29,388 nt of DNA. It comes from Microcoleaceae cyanobacterium. Lineage in GTDB: Bacteria; Cyanobacteriota; Cyanobacteriia; Cyanobacteriales; Microcoleaceae. The notes beneath the pieces were generated by a model that did no database searches, had not been told where the DNA came from, and saw nothing but the letters and a program-made list of their open reading frames with translations. A program made the translations under genes and the position numbers. This document shows positions 263 to 25,678 of the stretch, piece after piece. Where the stretch lies: positions 1-29,388 of the forward strand of contig JBOFUV010000002.1 in assembly GCA_051652765.1 (NCBI GenBank), written 5' to 3'. Each line of letters begins with the position of its first letter. The first letter of the stretch is position 1.

Positions 263-1625
263 CCAGCGCCCTTCAAATTCAAAGGAGCCCCAGGGGAATT
301 CAGCTATAGCCATTGAACGGGACTCCTTGGGTCGTGACCTGGAGAAGGATGAGTTAGATGTCGAAACGGCTGACCTGACTACACCCCTGGCCTCTGAAGA
401 TTATGCGTTTCAAGTGAATGATCTGGATAGGACGCTTTGGTTGTTGGAACACAGTCTCAATCAAGAATTTGAAAGTTATTTGGGGCTTGAGAGTGTGCCT
501 GTTCGTGATCGCCGAGCAATTCAGCAGGTTCTAAAAAAAGTTGAAGCTGAAACCGGGGAAGTTTATGTCATTGTTTATCTGGTGGCCCGAGATGAACAAT
601 TGGAAGTGGTCTTAGTGACTTCATCCGGTTCTCCAATTCATCGGAGTGTCCCAGAAGCTAGGGCAGAACTCCTGTTTCCCGTGATCAAAGCCTTGCAAGG
701 TAGCATCATCACGCCACGGGAACAGAATACCAACCGTTATCAAGACTCAGCCAAACAACTGTATGACTGGATTCTTCAGCCCATTGAGGCTGATTTACAA
801 AACGCTGGAGCCACAACGTTATTATTCTCTCTGGGGTTGGGACTGCGGAGCTTGCCAATAGCAGCGCTTTGGGATGGGGAGCAGTTCCTGATTGAAAAAT
901 ATAACTACAGCCTGATTCCCAGTACGAGCTTGATCAGTCCAACTTATACCTCCCTGACAGAGGCTGCGATCTTGGCGATGGGAGCTAGCCAGTTTTCGGA
1001 TCAAGCCCCTTTGCCTGCGGTGCCCCTAGAAGTTGAGAAGATTACTGAATTTTGGCCGGGACAGGTCTTTTTAAACGAATCCTTTACCCTGAGCAATTTA
1101 CAAGTCCAGCGACGGTTAATCAACTATGAGGTGATTCATCTTGCAACCCATGCTGACTTTCAACCCGGAACTCCGGAGAATTCTTATATTCAACTTTGGG
1201 ATCAAAAGTTGCCCCTGAGTCAATTGCCTGACCTGAATTGGGACACTCCTCAGTTGGAACTTCTAGTTCTGAGTGCTTGCCAAACTGCAATTGGAGATCG
1301 GGAGGCTGAGTTGGGGTTTGCTGGATTAGCCGTCCAAGCTGGGGCAAAGTCCGCGATCGCCAGTTTGTGGAATGTGAGCGATGAAGGAACCTTAGGGCTG
1401 ATGAGCGAGTTCTACATTGAATTGAAGACTGCACCAATCAAAGCCGCCGCCCTACGACAGGCCCAAATTGATATGATTCGGGGAAAGGTTCGGATTGAAT
1501 CGGGTCAGTTAATCACGGAACGGAGCACCCTGGCGTTACCCCCTGAACTAGTCGATGTCAACTCCCAGAGTCTTGCCCATCCCTATTATTGGGCTGGGTT
1601 TACGCTGATTGGGACACCGTGGTAG
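3..1625 (+). CDS. CHAT-domain (caspase-like) protein with Pro/Thr-rich linker, 5'-partial
   Basis: Frame 3 is open from the window start ([16 protein letters not shown]...) into the listed 327..1625 ORF. CHAT motifs IHLATHA (His), LVLSACQT (Cys), ASLWNVSD and HPYYWAGF. The true start lies upstream of the window. Confidence 0.92.
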
Positions 1626-1820
1626 CCAACTCGAACTTGATCCTGAGATTGTCAGAGTTTGATAATATAAGCTTAAGGGCAGAATCTACTGCATATTGCC
1701 CAATTTCTGCTCTATATTCCTGGTGTGAGCTGGTTATCATAGTCTAAGGTTGCCACTTTTCAAGACCCTGATTGGGGTGGCAAACATAGTTTATCGTCTA
1801 CAAAAGCTTGTAGATTTGGA

Positions 1821-1865
1821 TTCTAAATTGGCAAGCTCTAAGTTTGCAAGTTCTAAGTTTGCAGG
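1821..1865 (+). repeat. 3 x 15-bp tandem repeat upstream of the RTX gene
   Basis: ttctaaattggcaag / ctctaagtttgcaag / ttctaagtttgcagg. Confidence 0.75.
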
Positions 1866-1906
1866 CGCTTTCATTGTGTCAACAGTATTGAGGGAAACGT
1901 AAGTTT

Positions 1907-2614
1907 ATGAGTTCTTTGGTTGGAACAAGCGGTAACGACAATTTAATTGGAAGTGACTTTTCAGATTCTATCTTTGGTCTGGAGGGGAATGATGTCATCC
2001 GAGGGGGCGGGGGAAATGACACCCTGTTAGCTGGCCCAGGCGATGATGCTTTGACTGGGAATGATGCTAATTCCGTAACTGGGCTTCCTGGTCATGATTA
2101 TCTGTTTGCTGGCAAAGGAAACGACCGGCTTGACGGTCTTGGAGGAATAGACATTCTCTTTGGTGACATCGGCAACGATACGGTCTTTGGTGGGAATGAG
2201 GCTGATCAGGTTTTTGGGAATCAGGCTGAGGACACTGTAGACGGAGGTAACGGTGACGACACTCTGTTTGGTGGTCAGGGAAATGATAGTCTAGCTGGAA
2301 GTTTGGGTAATGATTGGCTGTTTGGAGATGGCGGGAACGACACGTTATTTGGCGGCAATGGGGATGATCGATTTGTCTTCCAGCCAGGATTTGGAACAGA
2401 CATCGTGATTAATTATACTGCGGGTGACAGAATTGTCCTGCTGGCCAGCGATGGGATTACTCGATCCGATTTAGCGTTTGCAAATGGAACTGGAGCTAAT
2501 AATGGCAGTCTGTTAATTAACCTGGCTTCAACTGGTGAAACCTTGGCGATCCTGCAGACGACTTCGGTTGAAGAATTCAATAGTATCGGGGTCGTTGAAG
2601 TTCTGGCAATCTAA
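1907..2614 (+). CDS. RTX/hemolysin-type calcium-binding repeat protein
   Basis: Many GGxGxDxLx nonapeptides (GGGGNDTLL, GGNGDDTLF, GGQGNDSLA, GDGGNDTLF); GAGGG upstream of the ATG. Confidence 0.9.
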   Translation: MSSLVGTSGNDNLIGSDFSDSIFGLEGNDVIRGGGGNDTLLAGPGDDALTGNDANSVTGLPGHDYLFAGKGNDRLDGLGGIDILFGDIGNDTVFGGNEADQVFGNQAEDTVDGGNGDDTLFGGQGNDSLAGSLGNDWLFGDGGNDTLFGGNGDDRFVFQPGFGTDIVINYTAGDRIVLLASDGITRSDLAFANGTGANNGSLLINLASTGETLAILQTTSVEEFNSIGVVEVLAI

Positions 2615-3427: not shown

Positions 3428-4825
3428 CTAAACGCCCAAAATCAGGTGAGCCAGATTGAAATAAATCAACACGCCCAAAACATCCACCGCAGTCGTAATA
3501 AACGGAGCAGACATTAAAGCCGGATCTAAGCCCAGAGTTCGGAACAAGAAGGGCAAGGCCGATCCTGAAACAGAGGCTAAGATCGAGATGGCGACTAGGC
3601 TAATTCCCACTGACAGAGCCACAGAAAATTCCCCCGGCACAATAAAAAAGTTTGCCCAGACGGTTGCCAAGACTCCCAAAATCACCCCTAACAACGCTCC
3701 TGCCAGACCTTCCCGCCAGATCACTTCAATCGGCTTCATCCCCCGAATTTCATCAGTATTCATTCCCCGAATCACAACCGTTGAAGATTGTGCCCCCACG
3801 TTTCCCCCGGTTCCAGTCAGCAACGGGATGAAAAAAGAAAGAGCCACCACCTCTTGAATAATGTCCTGCTGAGTCTTGAGAATGGCTCCCGTGATGCTAT
3901 TGGTCAGCAGCAAAATCAACAGCCAAACCACTCGACGACGGGCAACAGTGAGCAAACTGGCCTGGAAGTAGTTGTCTCCCTGGGCTTGTACTCCACTCAA
4001 GGCATAAATATCTTCCGTAATTTCCTCCTGCAAAATATCGAGGACATCATCAACTGTAATAATCCCCACGAGACGTTGTTCACTATCTACGACCGGAACC
4101 GCCAAAAAGTCATATCGTTGAATGATGCGGGCCACCTCTTCTTGGTCAGTTCCCGTTTGCACACAAACCAAATCTCGATTCATGATCTCGCCAATGGTCT
4201 GATCCAGTTGGGCTGTGACTAAATCCCGCAAGGACAAAATCCCCGATAACCTCCGATCAGAATCGGTCACGTACAGTGAGTAGATGGTTTCTGTAGTATT
4301 CGCCAAGCTGCGAATCCGTTCCAAGCTTTGACTCACGGTGTAGTGCTCCTTCAGGGAGATATATTCGGGCGTCATAATTCGCCCTGCTGTACCGGCTTCA
4401 TAGCCCAGTAATAGAGCAGTCGCTTGGCGTTCTGAAAGGCTCAACTGAGTCACCAAGCGACGAACAACTGTTGCAGGCAGTTCATCAAAGAGTTTGGCTC
4501 GATCATCTGGAGACATCTTGTCAACAATGTCTAGCACCTCCTGTCGCTTGAACTTCTCGCAAAGGGACTGTTGGACAACAGAGTCAAGCTGTTCGTAAAC
4601 CTCGATGGCTTCATCTTTAGACAATAGCCGGAAAGCAATCACTTGCATGGTTTCCGGCAGACCTTCAATCGCCTCAGCAATATCGGGGGGCTGAACCGGA
4701 ATCAAAATTGCTTTAGCCGCCTGCAAATCTCCCTGCTCTAGAAGGACTTGAAGTTGCGATCGCACAAGCTCCCGCAATTCCTTGCGAGACATCACGCTCA
4801 GAGTTGACTTTTCAGCTTCAGTCAA
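3428..4825 (-). CDS. mgtE: Magnesium transporter MgtE
   Basis: MgtE N-domain, CBS pair (AGRIMTPEY, YDFLAVPVVD, GIITVDD), membrane motifs GGNVGAQS and DPALMSAPFITTAVD. GGAGG RBS upstream of a TTG start. Confidence 0.96.
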   Translation of the reverse strand: MTEAEKSTLSVMSRKELRELVRSQLQVLLEQGDLQAAKAILIPVQPPDIAEAIEGLPETMQVIAFRLLSKDEAIEVYEQLDSVVQQSLCEKFKRQEVLDIVDKMSPDDRAKLFDELPATVVRRLVTQLSLSERQATALLLGYEAGTAGRIMTPEYISLKEHYTVSQSLERIRSLANTTETIYSLYVTDSDRRLSGILSLRDLVTAQLDQTIGEIMNRDLVCVQTGTDQEEVARIIQRYDFLAVPVVDSEQRLVGIITVDDVLDILQEEITEDIYALSGVQAQGDNYFQASLLTVARRRVVWLLILLLTNSITGAILKTQQDIIQEVVALSFFIPLLTGTGGNVGAQSSTVVIRGMNTDEIRGMKPIEVIWREGLAGALLGVILGVLATVWANFFIVPGEFSVALSVGISLVAISILASVSGSALPFLFRTLGLDPALMSAPFITTAVDVLGVLIYFNLAHLILGV

Positions 4826-8884: not shown

Positions 8885-10747
8885 ATGGCAACAATCATTG
8901 AAGATTTCCTCGCTAAATCCTTATCTGAAGCAGATTTGCGTCCCAGAGGGCGGGTGTTTCCCAGTCCGATTAGCTGGAATGACCAGATTTTGTACCAGCT
9001 TTTACCCGATCGTTTTAGCGATGGCCAGGAATCTCAACGTCCTCTATATGATCGCACCAACTCTGCCCCATTCCAGACAAGTCACAAAGCCTCTTGGATG
9101 GCAGCCGGAAACAAGTTTAATGGCGGAACCCTGAAAGGTATTGAAAGCAAACTGGACTATCTACAGAATTTAGGGGTTACCACCGTTTGGATTAATCCGC
9201 CCTGGAAGCAACGCATCGATTTACAGACCTACCATGGATACGGCATTCAGGATTTTCTGGACATCGACCCCCGGTTTGGCACCCGACAGGATCTGCGAGA
9301 TTTGGTAGATGCGGCCCATGACCGGGGTATGTACGTAATTCTAGATGTAATATACAACCACAGTGGCAGTAATTGGTTCTACCGGGATGAAACCGATGGC
9401 AGCCCGAAAGAGACAATGCCCTATCGCTTCTCACCCCCCTATGGGATTCATGGCTGGCGCTCAGCTCAAGGGGAAAGCCTCCCCGAGCCTGGATCAAGGA
9501 ATGATGGTGTGTTTCCTGAAGAATTTCAAAATCCAGACTGGTACAACCGGGCTGGGATGATTACTCACTGGGAAGCGAATAGCTGGGAAGACCCGATGAA
9601 CCCATTGGTTGAATTTCGCCGGGGCGACTTTTTTGAACTACGAGACTTCAACCTAGATCGACCGGAAGTCATTGCGGCCTTGGCCCAAGTGTTTGAGTAC
9701 TGGATTGCCTTAAGTGACTGTGATGGTTTTCGGGTCGATGCCGTGAAGCATGTTTCTCCCCAAGCCTCCCGTCAGTTCTGTGATGCCATTCACGGTTATG
9801 CCCAATCAATTGGAAAAGATAACTTTTTGCTGGTTGGTGAACTCACCGATGACAGTATGGTGCGCGCTTATCTGGATATCTTTGGACGCAAGCTAGATGC
9901 AGTGCTGGATATTGTGGTTGCACCGAACCGCTTAACTTCAGTAGCTCAGGGGTTGGCCCATCCAGGGGAATTCTTCGGTCTATATGATGACAAAACCCTG
10001 GCTGGTGGCCAACGTCAATTGGGAACCTATCATGTTACTGTGATCGATGACCACGATATGTCATCTCGCCCCCGCAAAGAACGGTTTGCTGCCCATAGTA
10101 GTGCACTGCCCCATCGCTATGAGCAAGCGGCTCATGGGGTAAGCATCGTCCTGACCATGCCGGGAATTCCTTCGATTTACTACGGAACTGAACAAGCATT
10201 TGATGGCTCCCAGGACTCTCATGACTATGGCATTGAGCCAAAACATGAATTTATTGATCGCTATATTCGAGAATGCATGTTTGGTGGCAAGTTTGGAGCG
10301 TTTGAAACGGAAGGATGTCACTTCTTTGACGCGAACCATCCTACCTATCTTCGGATAGCGGCGATCGCCCGCATTCGCAATCGCCAAGATTGCATCGGCA
10401 AAGCCCTGCGTCGGGGACATCACTATTTGCGAGAAACCTCATTTTTAGATCGTCCTTTTGCCATTCCCCCAGCCGGAGAAGTCGTTGCCTGGTCTCAGGT
10501 GCTCTACATCTATGAAGTGTTGATGGCCCTGAATACCCATGGTTTGGAGAGTCGGGGGGGAATGATTACAGTCGGTCGCTCCATCCATCCCCCAGGTTCC
10601 AAGATGACAGTGCTCTATAGAAGTGATTGGAGTGATGAACAGCTACGGCATCCTCCTGAAACTGAAACCTTTCCCGTGCAGGAATGCCAGGGACGAGCGG
10701 TGGTGCGAGTTGATTTGCCCCCGTCTGGCATGGTGATCTTAGCCTAG
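8885..10747 (+). CDS. Alpha-amylase family (GH13) glycoside hydrolase, cytoplasmic
   Basis: YQLLPDRF, GGTLKGI, YHGY, DVIYNH, DGFRVDAVKH (nucleophile), VGE (acid/base), IDDHD, PSIYYGTEQ. No signal peptide. Confidence 0.93.
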   Translation: MATIIEDFLAKSLSEADLRPRGRVFPSPISWNDQILYQLLPDRFSDGQESQRPLYDRTNSAPFQTSHKASWMAAGNKFNGGTLKGIESKLDYLQNLGVTTVWINPPWKQRIDLQTYHGYGIQDFLDIDPRFGTRQDLRDLVDAAHDRGMYVILDVIYNHSGSNWFYRDETDGSPKETMPYRFSPPYGIHGWRSAQGESLPEPGSRNDGVFPEEFQNPDWYNRAGMITHWEANSWEDPMNPLVEFRRGDFFELRDFNLDRPEVIAALAQVFEYWIALSDCDGFRVDAVKHVSPQASRQFCDAIHGYAQSIGKDNFLLVGELTDDSMVRAYLDIFGRKLDAVLDIVVAPNRLTSVAQGLAHPGEFFGLYDDKTLAGGQRQLGTYHVTVIDDHDMSSRPRKERFAAHSSALPHRYEQAAHGVSIVLTMPGIPSIYYGTEQAFDGSQDSHDYGIEPKHEFIDRYIRECMFGGKFGAFETEGCHFFDANHPTYLRIAAIARIRNRQDCIGKALRRGHHYLRETSFLDRPFAIPPAGEVVAWSQVLYIYEVLMALNTHGLESRGGMITVGRSIHPPGSKMTVLYRSDWSDEQLRHPPETETFPVQECQGRAVVRVDLPPSGMVILA

Positions 10748-10818: not shown

Positions 10819-11122
10819 AAGTATCCCAGGCAGAAAGATCAGCATTTGTCTGTTTCCTTGAATTGAAACTGTTGGTAGCCCTAAACGGTAATGATGTTTT
10901 GTGGGGGACGAAATCTCTCTTAAGGGGACAGTGCCCCCTGACCCTCACTCATCTTGACTATCAGACCGCTACCAAACGGTTAAATGTTGTGGCAATTTCA
11001 ATTGTAGTGAGATACGAGGGGGTTTGGGGACTTCTTCCCTAAGCAGGGGAGCGCTCCTGCATCCCACTTATCAGTGCCTCAATTGCGTAGAAAATGTTGT
11101 AACTAACCAAAAGGAGTTAAAA

Positions 11123-12298
11123 ATGTCCAGGAACTTACTCGATCAGCTCAGGGAAGTGACCGTTGTGGTCGCCGATACCGGAGATCTTCAAGCCATCAAG
11201 AAATTTGCTCCCCGAGATGCCACAACCAACCCTTCCTTGATTGCGACAGCGGCTCAGATGCCGGAATATCGAGAGATTGTGGATGAGACACTAATCCAAG
11301 CTAAGCAGGATTCTGGCTCAGGCGCAACTGAAGCGGAGATTATATCCTTAGCCTTTGCCCGTCTGGCAGTCTCCTTTGGCAAAAGGATTCTGGACATTGT
11401 GCCGGAGCGTGTTTCTGTCCAGGCTGATCCGCGCCTATCTCATGATACTGAGGCCACCATCAAGCAAAGCCGCTATCTGCTCTCTGAATTTGAAAAGGCA
11501 GGAGTTCCCCGCGAGCGGATTATGATCAAAATTGCATCGACCTGGGAGGGTATTTGTGCTGGCAAAATTTTAGAAGCAGAAGGCATTCAGTGCAATATGA
11601 CGCTGCTGTTTGGGATTCATCAGGCGATCGCCTGCGCCGAAATTAAGGCCACACTCATCTCCCCCTATGTCGGACGCATTTTTGACTGGTACGTTAAAGA
11701 AACAGGTAAGCAGTACGAGGGAGCTGATGATCCGGGTGTTCAGTCTGTTACACGGATCTACAACTATTACAAAAAATTTGGCTACTCAACGGAAGTCATG
11801 GGAGCGAGCTTCCGTAATATTAGTGAAATTGTTGAACTAGCGGGCTGTGACCTGCTGACCATTTCCCCTAAACATCTGGCCCAGTTGGAAGAAACAACTG
11901 GAGAATTGACCCGCAAGCTGGATGCTGGTAAGGCTGCTACCCTGGAGATTGAAAAAATTTCTATTGACAAAGCCGCCTTTGACCAGATGCACACCAGCGA
12001 TCGCATGGCATCTGAAAAGCTGGCTGAAGGCATCAAAGGGTTTAGTAAATCTCTAGAATCCCTAGAAAAATTCCTGGCCAATCGTCTAGCTCAACTAGAA
12101 GGGGGTGCCAAAGTCGGCACTGCGGCCACCGATATTTTTTCCGCTTACGACCTAGACGGGGATGGCTTCATCACTCGCGAAGAATGGATGGGATTAGATG
12201 CTGTATTTGATGCTCTTGACCTAGATGGCGACGGTAAGATCACGCCCGAAGAAATCGGCGCAGGGCTGGGAGCTACCCTGGAGATGGCAGGCATCTAA
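11123..12298 (+). CDS. tal: Transaldolase-family protein (TalB type with two C-terminal EF-hands) carrying FSA-type active-site residues
   Basis: AAGGAG RBS before the ATG at 11123. VVADTGD, DATTNPSLI, Schiff-base Lys in IKIASTWEG, CNMTLLF, MGASFRN. EF-hands DLDGDGFITREE and DLDGDGKITPEE. Atypical VSVQADPRLS and ISPYVGRI. Confidence 0.92.
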   Translation: MSRNLLDQLREVTVVVADTGDLQAIKKFAPRDATTNPSLIATAAQMPEYREIVDETLIQAKQDSGSGATEAEIISLAFARLAVSFGKRILDIVPERVSVQADPRLSHDTEATIKQSRYLLSEFEKAGVPRERIMIKIASTWEGICAGKILEAEGIQCNMTLLFGIHQAIACAEIKATLISPYVGRIFDWYVKETGKQYEGADDPGVQSVTRIYNYYKKFGYSTEVMGASFRNISEIVELAGCDLLTISPKHLAQLEETTGELTRKLDAGKAATLEIEKISIDKAAFDQMHTSDRMASEKLAEGIKGFSKSLESLEKFLANRLAQLEGGAKVGTAATDIFSAYDLDGDGFITREEWMGLDAVFDALDLDGDGKITPEEIGAGLGATLEMAGI

Positions 12299-12401: not shown

Positions 12402-12738
12402 ATGAGCTTAACTCTATATTGTCTCCGTCACGGGGAAACTCCTTATAGTCAGACAGGGGCTTACCGCAGTAGAAGTTGTAAGTCGTGCCCTATTGGTTCT
12501 AGCAGAGATTAAGGCCAAATTCTCGGCTGGCAATATCCTGATCGTCTCCCATAAGACGACGATTCGGATTATTCTTTGTAATCTACTGGGGATCGATTTA
12601 GGTCGCTATCGAGATCGTCTGGAAATGCGAGTAGCTTCAGTAAGTGTCATCAGGTTCAGTTCTTATGGCCCTTTGCTCCAACGCCTAGGCGATCGCACTT
12701 ACCTGAATGAAGCATTGCAAGACCGCCAGGAGGCTTAA
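12402..12738 (+). pseudogene. Histidine phosphatase (phosphoglycerate-mutase-like) pseudogene with internal deletion and frameshift
   Basis: ATG 12402 gives MSLTLYCLRHGETPYSQTGAY (RHG motif). At about 12463 the sequence switches frame to TAVEVVSRALLVLAEI...NILIVSHKTTIR (second catalytic His motif). The middle of the domain is absent. Confidence 0.85.
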
Positions 12739-12858: not shown

Positions 12859-13968
12859 ATGATTAAAACCACCATTTTTCCAGGACGCTATGTTCAGGGG
12901 AAGGACGCTAGAAAAAAGCTCAGCCAAGAGTTATCTCGGTATGGAGCTAAGGGACTACTCATCTGCGATTCCTTTGTGTACGAGAAGATCCTCCCGGATT
13001 TCGAACCTTATATGCAGGATGGAATCCAGGTTGTTGTCGAAAAATTCGATGGTGAGTCTTCAGATGAAGAAATTAATCGTTTGCTCCTTGCAGTTCATCA
13101 AGCACAGGCTCATTTCATCGTTGGATTAGGGGGTGGCAAAGCCATAGATACTGCTAAGGCAGTGGCCCATGGAGCCAAACTACCCGTTGTTATTGTCCCC
13201 ACGCTTGCTGCCAGCGATGCCCCCTGTAGTGCTGTGTCTGTCATCTATACTCCCGAGGGTGAGTTCAAGCGCTACTTACTCATGCCTCAGAACCCGAATC
13301 TGGTATTGATGGACACACAGATTGTGACTAATGCACCGATACGCTTTCTGATTGCTGGCATGGGGGATGCCCTTGCCACTTGGTTTGAAGCAGAATCCTG
13401 CATGAGAAAATATGCTCCTAATATGACTGGAGACCTGGGATCTATGTCAGCCTATTCATTGGCCAAGCTGTGCTACGACACGCTGATGGAATACGGGTTA
13501 GCTGCAAAAACAGCCTGTATAAATCATGTAGTAACCCCTGCCCTAGAGCGGATTGTTGAAGCGAATACGCTGCTCAGTGGTATCGGCTTTGAGAGTGCGG
13601 GGCTAGCCGCTGCCCACGCTATCCATAACGGCATGACTGCACTTGAGCAAACTCATCCCTACTTCCACGGTGAGAAGGTTGCCTTTGGAACTCTAGCTTC
13701 GCTGTTTTTGACTGACAAGCCTACTGCAATCATCGACGAAGTTTACAGTTTCTGTGAGACAATTGGTTTGCCAACTACATTAGCTGAACTTGGACTAGGT
13801 GAAGTCAGTGATCAGGCGCTAATGAAAGTAGCCACAGCTTCATGCAAGCCGGGAGAGACTATGCACAATGAACCAACACCTGTGAATCCAGATATGGTAT
13901 TTTCGGCCCTTAAGGCAGCAGATGCAGAAGGGAAAAGCCGTCGCTCGATTCTAGCAAGTAGGTGCTGA
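12859..13968 (+). CDS. gldA: Glycerol dehydrogenase (family III metal-dependent polyol dehydrogenase)
   Basis: FPGRYVQG N-terminus, GLGGGKAIDTAK, PTLAASDAPCSA, GMGDALATWFEA, EANTLLSGIGFESAGLAAAHAIHNG, HGEKVAFG. Confidence 0.95.
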   Translation: MIKTTIFPGRYVQGKDARKKLSQELSRYGAKGLLICDSFVYEKILPDFEPYMQDGIQVVVEKFDGESSDEEINRLLLAVHQAQAHFIVGLGGGKAIDTAKAVAHGAKLPVVIVPTLAASDAPCSAVSVIYTPEGEFKRYLLMPQNPNLVLMDTQIVTNAPIRFLIAGMGDALATWFEAESCMRKYAPNMTGDLGSMSAYSLAKLCYDTLMEYGLAAKTACINHVVTPALERIVEANTLLSGIGFESAGLAAAHAIHNGMTALEQTHPYFHGEKVAFGTLASLFLTDKPTAIIDEVYSFCETIGLPTTLAELGLGEVSDQALMKVATASCKPGETMHNEPTPVNPDMVFSALKAADAEGKSRRSILASRC

Positions 13969-14568: not shown

Positions 14569-15015
14569 TTAGACAGATATTACCTGACTAGAGAGATCCT
14601 TGACCAACACCGACCACAGCCCCTCAATTTCAATAACTAGGTCAGGAGGCGGATCATTTCTCAGATCAATGTCTAACTTGCCTTGAACACGAGTTTCATT
14701 CTGAATGTAGAAACATTCATCAGCTTCCTTGCCCACTTGCTTCGGTCGCGATCGCCAAGTTGTTGACTTTAAGCCCCGGATCTCCAATCCCAATTCCTCT
14801 GAAAGAATCACGACTAACCTGGCCAACGTCCAACTGTAGGTTTCATGTTCGGGCAGCGGAGTCATGAGTTCAAGGGTTCCTTTGTAGTAGGTGAAGCGAG
14901 GGGTTGATCGCTCTGCAAAAATAGTTAAAAGTTGCTCATAAATTTCCCAACTGATATCGTGGAGAACTAGTCGAGAATTAGTTGAGTTTTGTAGTGGAGG
15001 AGTGACCTGAATCAT
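14569..15015 (-). pseudogene. Uma2 (DUF820) family endonuclease, 3'-truncated
   Basis: LHDISWE.Y...GTLELMTP.PEHE...EADECFYIQ...PPPDLVIEI, followed by unrelated sequence below about 14624. The C-terminal part is missing. Confidence 0.8.
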
Positions 15016-15129
15016 GTTGAGGGATGTCCCACTGGAATTTTTTTAAATTAAAGATGTCTTCGCAGATTCAGAATGAGATTAACTGAGATTAGGATCAAGA
15101 TCAAAGTCGGTAGGGATTGTTGCAAATTC

Positions 15130-15705
15130 TTACCAGATCAACTCAAAACTAAATACAAAACCGGGTAGGACTTCCTCGCCCGAGCCTGTAGCAGGAGAGT
15201 TTAAAATTTCAACGGCTTGTCCAGGTCGATAGATCTCAACGTTTTTCGCTTGGGTATCGATCAGCCAACCTAAACGAGTGCCATTTTCGATATATTCGGC
15301 CAGTTTCTCTTGAATTGTTGTGAGGCGATCGCTCGGAGACCGTAACTCAATAACAAAGTCGGGGCAGAGGGGTACGAACTTTTTTTGCTGTTCAGGGCTA
15401 AGAGCTTTCCAGGACTCTAGGTTCACCCAGGCTGCATCTGGCGAGCGATCCGCACCGTTGGGGAGCTTGAATCCAGTAGAGGAGTCGAAGGCAATTCCCA
15501 AATCTTGATGGTTACGGCTCCAGGCTTGCAACTGGTAAGCAATTTCAATATTCCGGTTACCCGTCTCTCCTCCGGTTGGTGTCATGATCACTACATCTCC
15601 GTTCGTATTCCGTTCAAATTTCAAGTCGCGATTGTTCTGGCAGAGTTGGAAAAATTGCTCGTCAGTTAATTCAATGGATTCCAGATTCAAGGTTAAGTTT
15701 GTCAT
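15130..15705 (-). CDS. Uma2 (DUF820) family endonuclease, intact
   Basis: FERN..G...IMTPTGGETG, FDSSTGF.LPNGADRSPDAAW, LCPDFVIELRS, EYIENG.RLGWLID. Confidence 0.93.
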   Translation of the reverse strand: MTNLTLNLESIELTDEQFFQLCQNNRDLKFERNTNGDVVIMTPTGGETGNRNIEIAYQLQAWSRNHQDLGIAFDSSTGFKLPNGADRSPDAAWVNLESWKALSPEQQKKFVPLCPDFVIELRSPSDRLTTIQEKLAEYIENGTRLGWLIDTQAKNVEIYRPGQAVEILNSPATGSGEEVLPGFVFSFELIW

Positions 15706-20437: not shown

Positions 20438-23400
20438 CTAGACAAGTTTTGTCGGGTGGCAGTTCTGAATCAAGTTTCGCGATAACCTGGCCCGGTTCAA
20501 AATTTCTGATTCATTGAGGGGTGTGGGCAGATGGCAAGACAAACACAGGGGAGCCAGAATTTTAGTAGGAGTCGTTAGACTTTCTGAAACGGCATAGAAC
20601 TGTCCTTTATCCAGTCTGGCAATATCCTGTCCGCTTCCCCCCCGTTGACGCAATTGTTCTTGAATCACCTCAATTGCCGCTGGGGAGTTGGCCCGTCCAT
20701 AAAACTGGGTTGAACAATTGGCGATGATGTTATGGTCAATACTCTTGGGAGCCTGGGTTGCAAAGATAATGCCTAAACCATACTTGCGGGCTTGAGCCAC
20801 AAGACGGTTCAGGCTGGCTTTACACGGTGTCGATGTCGATCCTGCGGGAGCAAAATCCTTGGCTTCATCCAGAACCAACAACCCCCGCAGAGGAGCATGA
20901 CTGGGAGCAGGATTTTTCTTGATCCAGGTAAATAGAGTCATGAACAGTTGGTTCAGAAAGTGTTGCTGGGTTTCGAGACCAGGCAGACCTACAAAGTTGA
21001 GGATGGAAACCCGAGTTTTCCCGGAGGGTTCGCCTAAGCCCAACAAAATCGCTGGGTCTAGCGCTGAACCACTCTGACGCAGGAGGGGATTATTTAAAAT
21101 TTCGGCCCTGAGATTGTCTGCCATGGCTTGAGCTTTTTTGTCGGCATCTGCAATCCCTCCACCTGCTTCAGGAGGCAGATCAGACAGTAACTCAATGAAA
21201 TCAAGCAACCGCCCTCCTCCGTGATGAGCAAAGTAAATTAGAGCTGCTTTGAGCACACCTCGTTTGAGAATTGCGGTTTGAGATCTGCCCTGGGCGACAA
21301 TGTCCTGAAGGGTGTCTCGAGCCATATCAGCCGCCTGATCCAGTTCATCCGAATCGTTGGCAACGGCGGCTAAATCCGGCAACGGCTCTAGAGTTAACGG
21401 ATTCCCAGATTCGCGTCCCGGAGTCCAGACCAAGGCTTGGCTGTGCTGATGATACCGTTCAGCTTGGGCTTGGTCTTGGGAATTCCACTCTGCTGGTGGC
21501 TGCGGCCAACGATCCCCCAGACGCGCCAAGTCATTGGCACAGTCAACTACAATGGCAGGAATCCCCAAAATCACCGCTTCCTCAACTAACCGCCTGACCA
21601 ACACTGTTTTTCCCGTACCACTCCCAGCCAGAATCACTGTGTGTTTCGTGAGATTCTGCACTGGAATCGAGACCGTTTCTTTCGTCTGTTGACCAATCAG
21701 GCGAGCTCCAATCGGGAGGAGAAATGAAGGAGATGGTTGATCTTCAGGGGCTTTATTAAGTTCAGGGGCTTTAGATTCAGAGACATTAGGTTCAGGAGCT
21801 TTAAATTCAGGAGGAGGTTGAATTTCTGACATCCTGGCCGAAATCTGAGTAGAAGTTGGTATAGTTCCCGATGGCACAGCGGCCCGGTGAGAATTAACAC
21901 TTTCTGCCTCAAATAGCCAAGTCACAGCCTTTTGAAGAAAGTCCAGTTGGGAAACAGGGCGGCGATCGCGCAGCCAAGCTTCCAAGCCAGGATCTCTGCG
22001 GTTCTGAATTTCCTGTAGGGCAACTAAGGTTCGCAACTCATCTTCAGTCGGACGAACGAACAATCCGCCCCGACGCTGAAAGTCTTGAGTCAGATTCTGG
22101 GTGGCAGTTCCGTTGGGAATTCCATAGGTGCGAACAATGATTAACCTGCGAAAACCGAGAGAACGGTCGATGCCTGAGGCTGTCAGGGCTGCTTTCAAGC
22201 GAGATTGATAGGCCGTCGCATTTGTCCGTTGCAGGGCTCGCAGGCAAAGGTGTTTCTCGCGATCGCCTTGACGATGAAAAATCGACTGAATGCGCCCATG
22301 TAACGGGGGATAACGGCCAGAAAAATGAGTTTCAATGATCACCTCTGGGTCGTCCAAGATTGGATTTTCTTTCACCAGCAACTCACAGACCATTTTGAGC
22401 AGAGTTCCTAACCCTTGCTCTTCATTATTTTCCTCTAGCAAATGACTTAACTGTGCCTGGTGTTTTGCGGTTTCAAAGATTTCATCCAGACGCTGGGTTG
22501 AGATGGTCTCGTCTAGACTGGGTTGATCCGGATCAAAATTCCTGAGTTCTGTGATCTGTTGCGTTGATAAACACCGTTCGCGATGGTTGTGGCACAGTTG
22601 TAGAATTTTTCTGGGATACTTTCCTTTGACCGCTTCAAAAAATTCAGGATGAATTGGCCAAGTTTCATACGGAGGTACAAAGTGAACCCGCTGATAGGCA
22701 TCTTGAATGCGTAACTGGATAATTTCCGCAATGGCATTTGCTGTATTCATTTCTTTTAAAATCATGGCTTCTTGAAAGCGATCTTTAAAAGACTGAACTA
22801 CTTCGCTGATGAGAATTTCCCAGGTTTTCTTCAGACATGAAACTACAATCAATGTGCGACAGGTCTGATCCCGTAAAGCCATCAATCCCCCGCCAATTCC
22901 CTCAATAATTGATCTGGAAACCCGCTGTTCTTCGGACAGATCGGTATTAGCAGCTTGGTCGGCAATAAAGTGATGTTGGCTAATAATAGAATCTAACTGA
23001 TCGAAAGCAAGAATTGTAGGGCTCCGCAAGTTCATTAGCCAGGAAAGTCCCTCTACAATCTCACTCAAACGACTCACAGAAGTTGTGGCAAATCCATAAT
23101 CTGTCTTTTGTGTTTCATCAATTCCTAAACCCTGAAGCCAGTTATATCCCACTCCTGACAGCTTGAAACTAGTAGAATTGAGCAGAAATAAAGCCCGAAC
23201 TACATCCTGAAATTTAATTGCCAATGTTCGATCAATTTTGATCAGGGTTTCAAGAATTTTGACGACACATTTGCCTATAGTCTCAAATTTAGCTGGAGCC
23301 AACTGCTGTGGGGAGACTCGAATTCTAGATCGGGTCATTAGAAAGGCTATAAGTTTTTGAAATTGGGGAATGCCATCTGCTTCAACTTCCTGCAAAGAGC

Positions 23401-23743
23401 TAAGATAGCCCTGCAAAACAGTTTGCCAAAACTGATGCACATCGGTCATATCTACCAAGATAAAAGCCGCATCGTTAACCAACGTATACTGCCGAATTGC
23501 GGCCAAAAAATGGGTTTTTCCAGCTCCAGGCTCCCCAATAATGACTCGACCTAGGGGGGAACTCGAATTCTTGGCTTGCTTCAGTTTTTCTAGATCATTC
23601 TGGATTGTTTTTCGTTCTCGTTCGTGTAAAGTTTTGACATCAGAAATTGAATCCCGCCACACACTTTTAATGTGCATTGTCCAGTCAAAGTCAATTTCTT
23701 GCAGGGCTTGGAGGGCAAGTTCTGGCTGAATTAAATCTGTCAT
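20438..23743 (-). CDS. Double P-loop ATPase: N-terminal AAA+-like domain plus C-terminal HerA/FtsK-like (DUF87-type) domain
   Basis: Walker A GEPGAGKT (aa 70-77) with ILAFDQLD (about aa 248). Second Walker A AGSGTGKT (aa 706-713), Walker B LVLDEA (about aa 959) and HerA-type ARKYGLGIIFATQ (about aa 985-997). Confidence 0.88.
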   Translation of the reverse strand: MTDLIQPELALQALQEIDFDWTMHIKSVWRDSISDVKTLHERERKTIQNDLEKLKQAKNSSSPLGRVIIGEPGAGKTHFLAAIRQYTLVNDAAFILVDMTDVHQFWQTVLQGYLSSLQEVEADGIPQFQKLIAFLMTRSRIRVSPQQLAPAKFETIGKCVVKILETLIKIDRTLAIKFQDVVRALFLLNSTSFKLSGVGYNWLQGLGIDETQKTDYGFATTSVSRLSEIVEGLSWLMNLRSPTILAFDQLDSIISQHHFIADQAANTDLSEEQRVSRSIIEGIGGGLMALRDQTCRTLIVVSCLKKTWEILISEVVQSFKDRFQEAMILKEMNTANAIAEIIQLRIQDAYQRVHFVPPYETWPIHPEFFEAVKGKYPRKILQLCHNHRERCLSTQQITELRNFDPDQPSLDETISTQRLDEIFETAKHQAQLSHLLEENNEEQGLGTLLKMVCELLVKENPILDDPEVIIETHFSGRYPPLHGRIQSIFHRQGDREKHLCLRALQRTNATAYQSRLKAALTASGIDRSLGFRRLIIVRTYGIPNGTATQNLTQDFQRRGGLFVRPTEDELRTLVALQEIQNRRDPGLEAWLRDRRPVSQLDFLQKAVTWLFEAESVNSHRAAVPSGTIPTSTQISARMSEIQPPPEFKAPEPNVSESKAPELNKAPEDQPSPSFLLPIGARLIGQQTKETVSIPVQNLTKHTVILAGSGTGKTVLVRRLVEEAVILGIPAIVVDCANDLARLGDRWPQPPAEWNSQDQAQAERYHQHSQALVWTPGRESGNPLTLEPLPDLAAVANDSDELDQAADMARDTLQDIVAQGRSQTAILKRGVLKAALIYFAHHGGGRLLDFIELLSDLPPEAGGGIADADKKAQAMADNLRAEILNNPLLRQSGSALDPAILLGLGEPSGKTRVSILNFVGLPGLETQQHFLNQLFMTLFTWIKKNPAPSHAPLRGLLVLDEAKDFAPAGSTSTPCKASLNRLVAQARKYGLGIIFATQAPKSIDHNIIANCSTQFYGRANSPAAIEVIQEQLRQRGGSGQDIARLDKGQFYAVSESLTTPTKILAPLCLSCHLPTPLNESEILNRARLSRNLIQNCHPTKLV

Positions 23744-23746
23744 TGT

Positions 23747-24445
23747 TCAATATAAGTTCAATGTATCAATATAAACAAAATACCGTTTGTCATGACCTCC
23801 CATATCGAGGGCTGCCTGCTCATCCTCAGGGCCTATACTCCTGGGATCTTCCATGGACATCAGGGATAATTTTCCAGCACTCTGCATTCGGCGTAATTCT
23901 TGATCAATTTCATCGCGGGGGCAATCTTGCAACTGTTGACGGAGCTTGGATAATCGCAGGCCAATTTCAGAATTTTGATTCCCCAGCTCTCGGTAAACTT
24001 TCAAAATTCTGGCTTCAAGCGGCTCGGATAGATTCAGGGGGTGCTCTAAGTGTTCTAACGTCTCTGAATTCTTCGAGTGATCTCGGATTTGCTCCGAGGG
24101 TTTAGAGGTCTCTGGCTGTTGTCTCAGGACTTCTGCTAGAGAAATGTTATGAGATTTCAAATGGGTTCCCAGTTTAATCAGTAATGCTTGTAAAGGCTCT
24201 ACGGCCAACTGAGATTTGGATAACGTCACCCCATAATTTTCTACAGCCCAATCCCAGGCCCGATCAGTTAAGACGATATGCATAGATCGCGATCGCTTTT
24301 CTAGGGTAATCAATCCTGCGTGTTCAAGGGGCTTGCGTTCAGCTGGACTCAGATTTGGCTTGACTTTAGAAATTGCAGGTTCTTCTCCTGTGATTAACAG
24401 GTTCCATAGCGCTAAAGCTTGCTTCGGAGTGGACTGAAAGCTCAT
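23747..24445 (-). CDS. Hypothetical protein, probably two winged-helix-like domains
   Basis: 232-aa ORF, 3 bp from the ATPase start. Patterns LEHAGLITLEKR...IVLTDRAWDW and LRLSKLRQQL..PRDEIDQELRRMQ.AGKLSL are wHTH-like (inference). Confidence 0.75.
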   Translation of the reverse strand: MSFQSTPKQALALWNLLITGEEPAISKVKPNLSPAERKPLEHAGLITLEKRSRSMHIVLTDRAWDWAVENYGVTLSKSQLAVEPLQALLIKLGTHLKSHNISLAEVLRQQPETSKPSEQIRDHSKNSETLEHLEHPLNLSEPLEARILKVYRELGNQNSEIGLRLSKLRQQLQDCPRDEIDQELRRMQSAGKLSLMSMEDPRSIGPEDEQAALDMGGHDKRYFVYIDTLNLY

Positions 24446-24454
24446 GACGACTTC

Positions 24455-25678
24455 CTAGGTTCTGAACGGTTGACTGCGACGAAACTTTACAACTTCACGA
24501 ATTTTGTTGAGGGCGATCTCAACATCATTCACCACTTCCTGATGGGGCAGTCGGAGCACAAGATACCCACTGATTAATAATTCATAATCCCGATGGCGAT
24601 CCTCAGTAAAGGCAAAGAGAAGGGAGTGATGCCGATAGCCATCAATTTCCACTACCACCTTACCATCTGACCAGAGCAAATCAACCCAATACCATCGCCC
24701 ACAGCAGGTTTGCACCCGTTGATTGAATCCAAAAAGTTCGGCCAACTCACCATCCCGAGACAAGGATTGCGCCAACAGTTGCTCCCCCGGACTACAGGGA
24801 TGAGGTCTACCTTGGATCGGCCAAAGCAGATGACGAGATTCTTCAAGGGTTTCTGGGTTAACGGTTTCTGAGTTAAGCGTTTTTGAGTTAAGAGTTACTG
24901 GGTTAACAGTTACAGGCTCAAGGCTTCCTGGTTTAACGGTTTCTGGGTTAACAGTTTCTGAGTGAGCGGTTTCTGGGTTAAGGATTGGTTCAACGGTTCC
25001 TAAGTTGGGTCTTGAAAAGTCCGTTGCTGCAAGGTTTGACCCTTGGGAAGAGAGAGAAATTGCACCGTACCGCACAGAATCCAATTCTGAACAGTTTGAT
25101 AGTTCCTTTGGAATCAGAACCGCAATACTTGCACCTGTTGATTGCGCCAACCAAGTGGCGGCCTGAGCAAAACTGAGGAGTTTATGGGGTTGAGGATGGC
25201 GATCGCCCATTGCCAAAAGGATCACCAGACTAAACGGGTCAATTGCCAAGGCCAGTTGAGCAACCTGAACCGTTCGAGGAAAATTCGGAAAAATCGGCAA
25301 CTGATTCATTTGACAAGCCTTTACCGCCGCTTTCAGCCAAGGGATAGAGGCATTCTGCCGAGTTGTAGGTAACTCCTGAAGCTTGAAGTGATTGAGCAGA
25401 TCGTCTTCCAGGAGGCTATTGTCCAAGAAAGGCGCTGTAACCGCTTGCCCATACCAGAATGGCCAGAGCCTAAGGGCTGCCTGAGCTAGGGCTTGTAGCA
25501 ATTCTTCTAAAAGAACTTTATGATTGGGCAGAACGTCCCAAGTCTGAATCATGCCCTTTCCCTGATCCAAGTTCGCAAGTTCAGCAACTTCCAGGGAGGC
25601 GATGACTTCATCCACCTCGGTACAGAGAAATGCTCTTACGTCACCGGCGGGAATTTGAGACAGAAACTGACTCAACAT
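24455..25678 (-). CDS. DUF559/Vsr-like endonuclease domain protein with long uncharacterised N-terminus
   Basis: C-terminal SPGEQLL...FNQRV...WVDLLW...VVEIDGYRHH...DRHRDYELLISGYLVLR (D333, E344). Confidence 0.85.
   Translation of the reverse strand: MLSQFLSQIPAGDVRAFLCTEVDEVIASLEVAELANLDQGKGMIQTWDVLPNHKVLLEELLQALAQAALRLWPFWYGQAVTAPFLDNSLLEDDLLNHFKLQELPTTRQNASIPWLKAAVKACQMNQLPIFPNFPRTVQVAQLALAIDPFSLVILLAMGDRHPQPHKLLSFAQAATWLAQSTGASIAVLIPKELSNCSELDSVRYGAISLSSQGSNLAATDFSRPNLGTVEPILNPETAHSETVNPETVKPGSLEPVTVNPVTLNSKTLNSETVNPETLEESRHLLWPIQGRPHPCSPGEQLLAQSLSRDGELAELFGFNQRVQTCCGRWYWVDLLWSDGKVVVEIDGYRHHSLLFAFTEDRHRDYELLISGYLVLRLPHQEVVNDVEIALNKIREVVKFRRSQPFRT
24846..24980 (-). repeat. 9 x 15-bp degenerate tandem repeat encoding a pentapeptide (NPETV-like) linker
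   Basis: Units such as acggtttctgggtta and acggtttctgagtta recur with exact 15-bp period on the + strand. Confidence 0.9.

Follow-up and report, generated by a model that had tools for sequence, protein, structure and literature searches.

A stretch of 29,388 nucleotides (nt) from a Microcoleaceae cyanobacterium (contig JBOFUV010000002.1, referred to here as the window) contains a gene at 11123-12298 on the forward strand whose product has the fold of the large TalB-type transaldolases together with the catalytic residues of fructose-6-phosphate aldolase (FSA). The gene likely encodes a natural, independently evolved aldolase for fructose 6-phosphate (F6P) and dihydroxyacetone (DHA) that would feed glycerol formation, and its product probably splits F6P in a route of glycogen breakdown. 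The initial annotation of the window had interpreted the gene as an aldolase of this kind, and the evidence from sequence, phylogeny and gene context supports this within the reach of such data. Direct observation covers the residues, the clade that shares them, the purifying selection on this clade, the paralogs kept in the same genomes and the gene neighbourhoods.

Candidate gene and catalytic residues

The reading frame at 11123-12298 runs through 391 codons without a stop; an alternative, longer frame would begin at a TTG at 11024. The gene and its parts are as follows.

11123..12298, + strand: Gln/Tyr TalB-type transaldolase-fold gene with EF-hands, 391 amino acids (aa), candidate F6P aldolase (translation, profiles, alignments, tree)
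11111..11116, + strand: Shine-Dalgarno-like AAGGAG, 6 nt ahead of the ATG (read from the sequence)
11165..12070, + strand: TAL_FSA catalytic barrel, residues 15-316 (Pfam PF00923, 1.2e-86)
11417..11431, + strand: codons 99-103, V-Q-A-D-P in place of canonical T-E-V-D-A, with Gln100 at 11420-11422
11528..11530, + strand: Lys136, the Schiff-base lysine (TalB Lys132, FsaA Lys85), invariant in alignments A1 and A2
11600..11602, + strand: Thr160, third member of the water-holding triad (TalB Thr156, FsaA Thr109), invariant in A1 and A2
11666..11668, + strand: Tyr182 (TalB Phe178, FsaA Tyr131; alignment)
12131..12268, + strand: two C-terminal EF-hand calcium-binding motifs, residues 337-382 (Pfam EF-hand_5, _1 and _6)

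The motifs VSVQADPRLS and ISPYVGRI, to which the initial annotation had drawn attention as replacements of canonical VSTEVDARLS and ISPFVGRI, are both present in the translation, with the codons CAG at 11420 (Gln100), AAA at 11528 (Lys136) and TAT at 11666 (Tyr182). Gap-free local alignments to the solved transaldolases 3hjz, 2cwn and 1f05 place Gln100 and Tyr182 over the canonical sites (rvsvqadprl over rvstevdarl, lispyvgri over lispfvgri). When the protein is aligned with TalB, FsaA and FsaB of E. coli, whose sequences come from the annotated K-12 record, the constant +4 offset to TalB proves exact: Gln100, Lys136, Thr160 and Tyr182 correspond to Glu96, Lys132, Thr156 and Phe178. The catalytic lysine is intact, as had been stated, and stands in the column of TalB Lys132 and FsaA Lys85. 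The proposed equivalence to Gln59 and Tyr131 of FSA likewise holds in this alignment. The hallmark set of FSA is thus present, as Gln100, Thr160, Tyr182 and Lys136 share columns with FsaA Gln59, Thr109, Tyr131 and Lys85. Two hallmarks of subfamily I are lost, the catalytic glutamate (TalB Glu96) having become Gln100 and Phe178 having become Tyr182. The donor-pocket Ala129 of FSA is Ser180 in the candidate, like Ser176 of TalB, and the TalB substrate-binding residues are kept (Asp18, Asn36, Asn158, Ser180, Arg185, Ser229 and Arg231, invariant in A2).

Family models classify the protein by its scaffold. It passes the cyanobacterial transaldolase equivalog NF008965 of NCBIfam (659.3 bits against a cut-off of 550) and TIGR00874 (talAB; 447.2 against 396.2), and it fails TIGR00875 (FSA, subfamily V; 73.9 against 245.95, with a length of 391 aa against approximately 220). 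With both equivalog cut-offs exceeded, annotation pipelines would call the gene a transaldolase, as had been anticipated. An AlphaFold2 model (predicted local distance difference test score 90.3) superimposes on TalB-type structures from mouse, human, yeast and E. coli with Z 48.7-50.7 and a root-mean-square deviation (rmsd) of 1.0-1.7 A over 315-321 residues; FSA reaches Z ~22, versus ~49-51 for the subfamily I transaldolases. The structure search serves for fold membership and entry titles only, since the TalB variants tie at Z 48.4-49.0 and aldolase and transaldolase are indistinguishable by it. Family models and structure place the candidate among the subfamily I transaldolases, yet the catalytic hallmark of FSA is present.

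The exchange of these residues has been studied in the E. coli enzymes. The gain of F6P aldolase activity by engineered TalB F178Y, cited in the initial annotation, is documented: this substitution alone yields 70-fold more F6P formation starting from DHA plus glyceraldehyde-3-phosphate (GAP), with an efficiency like that of wild-type FSA and with DHA preferred (PMC3962226). In FSA the catalytic water is held by Gln59, Thr109 and Tyr131, and swaps between FSA and TalB at the residues organising this water interconvert the activities (PMC13259622). Introduction of the TalB-like residue into FSA (A129S) raises its use of DHA 17-fold, Arg181 holds the acceptor phosphate, and both FSA and TalB F178Y take alternative donors (PMC3962226). 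A published classification, in the summary given by PMC7092467, assigns F6P aldolase activity to subfamily V only.

Conservation and origin of the Gln/Tyr clade

Among the 120 best matches that a collection of 5.8 billion clustered proteins gave, the top 16, which have 76-100% identity and include the query, carry Gln and Tyr within VSVQ(A/S)DPR and ISPYVGRI, and the remaining 104 carry Glu and Phe within VSTEVDAR and ISPFVGRI. Because all 16 closest proteins have Gln and Tyr and all 104 next ones Glu and Phe, the pair reflects neither chance nor sequencing error. The EF-hand architecture is found in all 120, and the source names, where given for some, are cyanobacterial. Fourteen positions fully discriminate the 16 from the 104 (41, 79, 99, 100, 101, 103, 115, 116, 123, 134, 156, 182, 251 and 358), half of which (99, 100, 101, 103, 134, 156 and 182) lie at most four residues from Gln100, Lys136, Asn158/Thr160 or Tyr182.

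A maximum-likelihood tree was built from 72 rows, namely 18 Gln/Tyr proteins, 53 Glu/Phe proteins (every second Glu/Phe match plus the paralog from the window's own genome) and E. coli TalB as outgroup, after removal of the columns around the trait sites (positions 98-104 and 181-183). All 18 Gln/Tyr rows fall on one branch (Shimodaira-Hasegawa-like approximate likelihood ratio test 100, stem 0.22) that is nested among Glu/Phe cyanobacterial proteins. The switch in this clade therefore arose once, from a canonical TalB-type ancestor and independently of the small FSA, in agreement with the separate origin from the FsaA/FsaB family that had been proposed.

Six Gln/Tyr genes were compared at the codon level. 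Gln100 is encoded by CAG in some and by CAA in others, and Tyr182 by either TAT or TAC; synonymous divergence (dS) is saturated, at least 1.66 or not computable, and nonsynonymous divergence (dN) is 0.09-0.17, with an omega of 0.03-0.08 where computable. The clade is under strong purifying selection. It is also rare: the protein collection contains 16 clusters of it when grouped at 90% identity, Gln and Tyr occur in two of the 30 top-ranked loci of a cyanobacterial sample with 401 genomes, and a motif scan detected them in three of 391 genomes of a phylum-level sample and in none of the 24 further genomes belonging to the family of the window.

The Glu/Gln and Phe/Tyr switch also occurs outside this clade. 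In a set of the 150 best TalB-type representatives at 50% identity, the combination Glu/Lys/Thr/Phe occurs in 108, Gln/Lys/Thr/Tyr in two (P0212 and P0216), Glu/Lys/Thr/Tyr in four (including a 'transaldolase family protein' from Oryzibacter and one of Phialemonium origin, per their sources) and Gln/Lys/Thr/Phe in three. Tyrosine at the Phe178 column is thus found in six (P0193, P0212, P0216, P0233, P0235 and P0257), four with Glu and two with Gln, which suggests a switch that was repeated and generally overlooked; every representative with a Tyr or Gln switch residue is annotated as transaldolase or hypothetical. Where sources name these six or the three with Gln and Phe (P0183, P0184 and P0201), the organisms comprise a bacterium (Oryzibacter), a fungus (Phialemonium), two beetles and Paramecium, among others.

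Paralogs in the Gln/Tyr genomes

The window's genome (G000, 99.97% complete) has four TAL_FSA genes. Besides the candidate, these are a canonical Glu/Phe EF-hand transaldolase on contig 19 that is 67% identical to it, a long transaldolase between fbp-like and zwf-like genes, and a 213-aa FSA-like protein (L004:1498-2139, contig 54) with Gln and Tyr at the FSA positions, which fails the NCBIfam FSA cut-off (156 against 246 bits). The second, canonical transaldolase gene whose presence the initial annotation had proposed to look for is therefore found, in the same EF-hand type and in addition to the long enzyme of the fbp-tal-zwf arrangement. Homologs of the small FSA-like paralog occur in 19 of the 401 sampled genomes, mostly within the window's own order, and the paralog is a lineage trait of that order. 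Three TAL_FSA genes (canonical, Gln/Tyr and long) are present in G311, and two each (canonical and Gln/Tyr) in G550 and G531. As the canonical gene accompanies the Gln/Tyr gene in all four genomes, the latter is an addition and not the housekeeping transaldolase.

Gene neighbourhood

The candidate and three genes around it in the window are listed here.

8885..10747, + strand: GH13 alpha-amylase-family gene upstream of the candidate, 620 aa (Pfam Alpha-amylase, 1.4e-48; best solved relatives are alpha-amylases)
11123..12298, + strand: the candidate
12402..12738, + strand: decayed histidine-phosphatase (PGM-family) gene between the candidate and gldA, with a 36-codon N-terminal and an 80-codon C-terminal piece in different frames and the middle lost
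12859..13968, + strand: gldA, glycerol dehydrogenase, 369 aa (517 bits on NF006941, cut-off 336; identity to E. coli GldA 51%, E 3e-126)

The gldA product also matches propanediol and glycolaldehyde reductase models, below their cut-offs. Neighbours were compared by tblastn, with gene names from NCBIfam, between eight Gln/Tyr loci and a control set of 80 loci from a genome-contig search, all Glu/Phe and with a median length of 11.7 kb. The Gln/Tyr loci are the window, L115 (G311), L141 (G550), L142 (G531) and the metagenome loci L116, L119, L120 and L122; the metagenome pattern scan had returned seven stretches, of which L117, L118 and L121 lacked a transaldolase match and were dropped. The counts were as follows.

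gldA: 4 of 8 Gln/Tyr loci (window, L115, L119 and L122), 0 of 80 canonical loci
GH13 (type of 8885..10747; orthologs of 77-84% identity, directly upstream): 4 of 8, 0 of 80
D-lactate-dehydrogenase-like (D-LDH-like) 2-hydroxyacid dehydrogenase: 4 of 8, 0 of 80
LctP-family (lactate) permease: 3 of 8, 0 of 80
glgP: 3 of 8, 12 of 80
gap: 1 of 8, 14 of 80
histidine phosphatase: 2 plus a remnant of 8, 16 of 80
eno: 1 of 8, 1 of 80

The gene orders read glgP-GH13-tal-(phosphatase remnant)-gldA in L122, gap-tal-phosphatase-gldA-D-LDH-like-lctP in L119 and glgP-GH13-tal-eno-D-LDH-like-lctP in L141. L116 is the only Gln/Tyr locus without any specific partner, and L120 stops just after tal at a contig edge. 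L119 has an intact histidine phosphatase (212 aa), L122 one with an internal deletion that stays in frame, and L115 none; since the gene is intact, deleted, frameshifted or gone depending on the locus, it is dispensable. In G000 a close ortholog of the D-LDH-like gene was not found (best match 33% identity), and an LctP ortholog (70% identity) occurs by itself on a different contig.

On contig 19 of G000, a glycogen phosphorylase frame (L001:1426-3910) lies right after the canonical EF-hand transaldolase gene and overlaps it. Since glgP stands beside the canonical gene there and in 12 of the 80 canonical loci, the link to glycogen breakdown is older than the duplication that gave rise to the Gln/Tyr gene.

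Between 8500 and 14400, promoter-like sites (9, against 7.0 +/- 2.5 in shuffles) and terminator-like sites (4, against 5.1 +/- 2.5) lie within the spread of the shuffled sequence. At 0.47-0.51, the GC content of the cluster resembles that of the remaining window and gives no compositional hint of a recent transfer.

Handling of DHA and glycerol across genomes

GldA at 75% identity or more occurs in two of the 401 sampled cyanobacterial genomes, which are exactly the two Gln/Tyr genomes of that sample. Four others (G005, G028, G032 and G373) have only distant GldA-like genes of 40-49% identity, and no TAL_FSA gene was found near these within loci of ~4 kb. In G550 an intact gldA (78% identity) lies on a contig other than that of the Gln/Tyr gene. 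Contig 138 of G531 carries a C-terminal remnant of gldA (L146:1453-1755; 100-codon frame, 59% identity to residues 232-363), which adjoins mgtE; the mgtE of the window (3428-4825) lies a few kb upstream of its cluster.

The DHA kinase Dak1 was not found in any of the four Gln/Tyr genomes, and glycerol kinase was not found in G000 and was found in G311. With neither kinase found in G000, DHA formed there by GldA would enter central metabolism only via a reaction of the F6P aldolase type.

Comparison with known enzymes

A close counterpart of the candidate is a product of the laboratory. Structure entries are titled 'Transaldolase B E96Q F178Y' (4RZ6) and 'TalB mutant E96Q, F178Y, R300E' (9QPK), with the related E. 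coli TalB entries 3CWN (F178Y) and 4RZ5 (E96Q). Engineered TalB E96Q/F178Y shares with the candidate the scaffold of subfamily I (52% identity; Z 48.7 and rmsd 1.6 A across 315 residues) and the identical two substitutions in the same columns, with the serine before Pro-Tyr and the phosphate-binding arginine kept. The candidate, however, is natural, conserved throughout its clade and under selection, and it has 12 further clade-specific changes, including Thr99Val, Val101Ala, Ala103Pro, Leu134Met and His156Gln; it also ends in a pair of EF-hands that TalB lacks. The same double swap is present in Thermoplasma acidophilum transaldolase E60Q/F132Y (4XZ9), where the entry title names a complex of the DHA Schiff base and G3P, although that enzyme is engineered, small, decameric and of subfamily IV (Z 23.3, 30% identity).

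With FsaA and FsaB of E. coli (subfamily V) the candidate shares the Gln/Thr/Tyr/Lys catalytic set. It differs from them in overall sequence (26-30% identity), in length (391 aa versus 220 aa, with a score below the FSA cut-off), in having Ser180 where FSA has Ala129 and in its origin inside the TalB types. The gene order is also shared, as fsaB lies directly upstream of gldA in E. coli and the candidate is likewise followed by gldA; the two E. coli genes form one operon (PMC6643234). No ptsA neighbours the candidate, in contrast to the ptsA-fsaB-gldA operon. The Michaelis constant of E. coli GldA is much lower for DHA (0.3 mM) than for glycerol (56 mM), and fsaB and gldA are regarded as anaerobic genes, with the physiological role of FSA termed unknown (PMC6643234).

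The canonical EF-hand transaldolase on contig 19 of G000 is of equal length and domain order and also scores above the NF008965 cut-off. Canonical cyanobacterial enzymes of this type share with the candidate the inherited neighbours glgP, gap and histidine phosphatase, but carry STEVDAR and SPFVGR and have no gldA, GH13, D-LDH-like or lctP neighbour in the 80 loci. Open full-text literature, covered mostly through titles and the beginnings of abstracts and without subscription papers, yielded no natural TalB-type enzyme with the tyrosine and no cyanobacterial F6P aldolase.

Proposed reaction and metabolic role

From these observations we infer an activity, a direction of flux and a physiological role. 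The candidate would be a class I (Schiff-base) aldolase on a large TalB-type transaldolase scaffold. Lys136 would form the Schiff base with F6P, and Tyr182, together with Gln100 and Thr160, would hold and activate the catalytic water in place of the Glu-water pair of transaldolases. The enzyme-bound DHA unit would then be released as free DHA and would not be retained for transfer to an aldose acceptor, giving the net reaction F6P <-> DHA + GAP. Since the TalB residues Ser180 and Arg185 are retained, DHA is the predicted preferred donor, and a phosphorylated acceptor should likewise be favoured.

The downstream GldA would interconvert DHA and glycerol. In combination with the upstream GH13 glucanase, F6P derived from glycogen could be split without phosphofructokinase or ATP; GAP would proceed to pyruvate with a yield of 2 ATP and 1 NADH, and DHA would be reduced to glycerol with the NADH made by glyceraldehyde-3-phosphate dehydrogenase. 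In relatives, the D-LDH-like enzyme and the lactate permease may provide a second sink for reducing power. Neighbours belonging to glycogen and fermentation metabolism suggest flux in the direction of cleavage; the reverse direction, a kinase-free assimilation of glycerol, could also occur. A more far-reaching proposal can be offered tentatively, namely that a small cyanobacterial clade re-invented F6P aldolase on an EF-hand transaldolase scaffold as the core of a phosphofructokinase-independent, redox-balanced glycogen fermentation (glucosyl units to F6P, F6P to GAP and DHA, GAP to pyruvate or exported D-lactate, and DHA with NADH to glycerol).

Alternative explanations

Several observations weigh against an aldolase that works with GldA. 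The candidate passes both transaldolase equivalogs and fails the FSA model. gldA is non-adjacent in three of the seven informative Gln/Tyr loci (L116, L141 and L142); where the two genes are neighbours in the window, a gap of 560 bp with a dead gene inside separates them, and the neighbourhood counts come from only eight, mutually related loci. In G531, where gldA survives just as a remnant and Dak1 was not found, the proposal does not account for what becomes of DHA, and in G311 the presence of glycerol kinase means that GldA need not depend on an aldolase. In G000 the small FSA-like paralog, with its own Gln and Tyr, could be the partner of GldA and possibly has the same activity, although G000 alone among the 19 genomes with this paralog has GldA.

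The family models speak most directly for an enzyme that is still mainly a transaldolase, a second isoenzyme for glycogen catabolism in which Gln and Tyr tune kinetics or regulation. The TalB fold and the full set of kept substrate-binding residues agree with this, and the neighbourhood is partly inherited, as glgP, gap and histidine phosphatase are also found near canonical genes (12, 14 and 16 of 80 loci, respectively). We consider it unlikely all the same, as the glutamate that organises the catalytic water of transaldolases is replaced in all 16 members, jointly with the change of Phe to Tyr, and published swaps at these positions interconvert the activities (PMC13259622; PMC3962226). The canonical enzyme is, moreover, kept in the same genomes, and gldA is found at Gln/Tyr loci and at none of the 80 canonical ones, whereas DHA is not a free substrate or product of transaldolase.

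Somewhat less probable still is a DHA-releasing aldolase for another ketose phosphate, for example one that cleaves sedoheptulose 7-phosphate to DHA and erythrose 4-phosphate, or an aldolase with a different donor (hydroxyacetone or glycolaldehyde, for instance). Both F6P with GAP and sedoheptulose 7-phosphate with erythrose 4-phosphate are natural ligands of the TalB scaffold. The neighbouring GldA matches the propanediol and glycolaldehyde reductase models mentioned above, and the alternative donors accepted by FSA and TalB F178Y fit this possibility as well (PMC3962226). The neighbourhood, however, holds glycogen and lower-glycolysis genes and no heptose, sulfosugar or deoxysugar genes, and the retained Ser180 favours DHA according to the published A129S and S176A data (PMC3962226). 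A catalytically dead relic, or a purely regulatory calcium-binding transaldolase, would account for the lost canonical glutamate, the EF-hands and the dead gene next door. It is very improbable given that Lys136 and the other active-site residues are invariant, that omega stays at 0.03-0.08 across saturated synonymous divergence, and that the same EF-hands are present on canonical, presumably active, paralogs. An F6P/DHA aldolase remains the likely function.

Other genes in the window

The genes that come directly downstream of gldA are two adjacent members of the Uma2 family, putatively restriction endonuclease-like (14569-15705, - strand). The region 20438-25678 (- strand) encodes a 1101-aa protein with two ATPase regions and matches to PADLOC mad8 (1.8e-26) and HerA models, followed by a 232-aa protein without family and by one of 407 aa whose end is DUF559 endonuclease-like; it is possibly a defence-type gene set. 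At 327-2614 (+ strand), a CHAT-domain protein with a weak PADLOC BovA match (8e-07) is followed by a 235-aa protein of RTX calcium-binding repeats.

Significance

If the candidate is the F6P aldolase proposed here, evolution would have taken a two-residue route identical to that of laboratory engineering. For biocatalysis, the enzyme would be a DHA-dependent aldolase that is ready for use and that 12 additional natural substitutions have already optimised, and it would correct an annotation in which pipelines necessarily err, since the gene scores as an equivalog transaldolase. It would also provide a testable physiological setting for F6P aldolase, in which glycogen is broken down and reducing power is disposed of as glycerol and lactate. 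Should the tentative proposal of a glycogen fermentation hold as well, it would be the first clear physiological role of an F6P aldolase.

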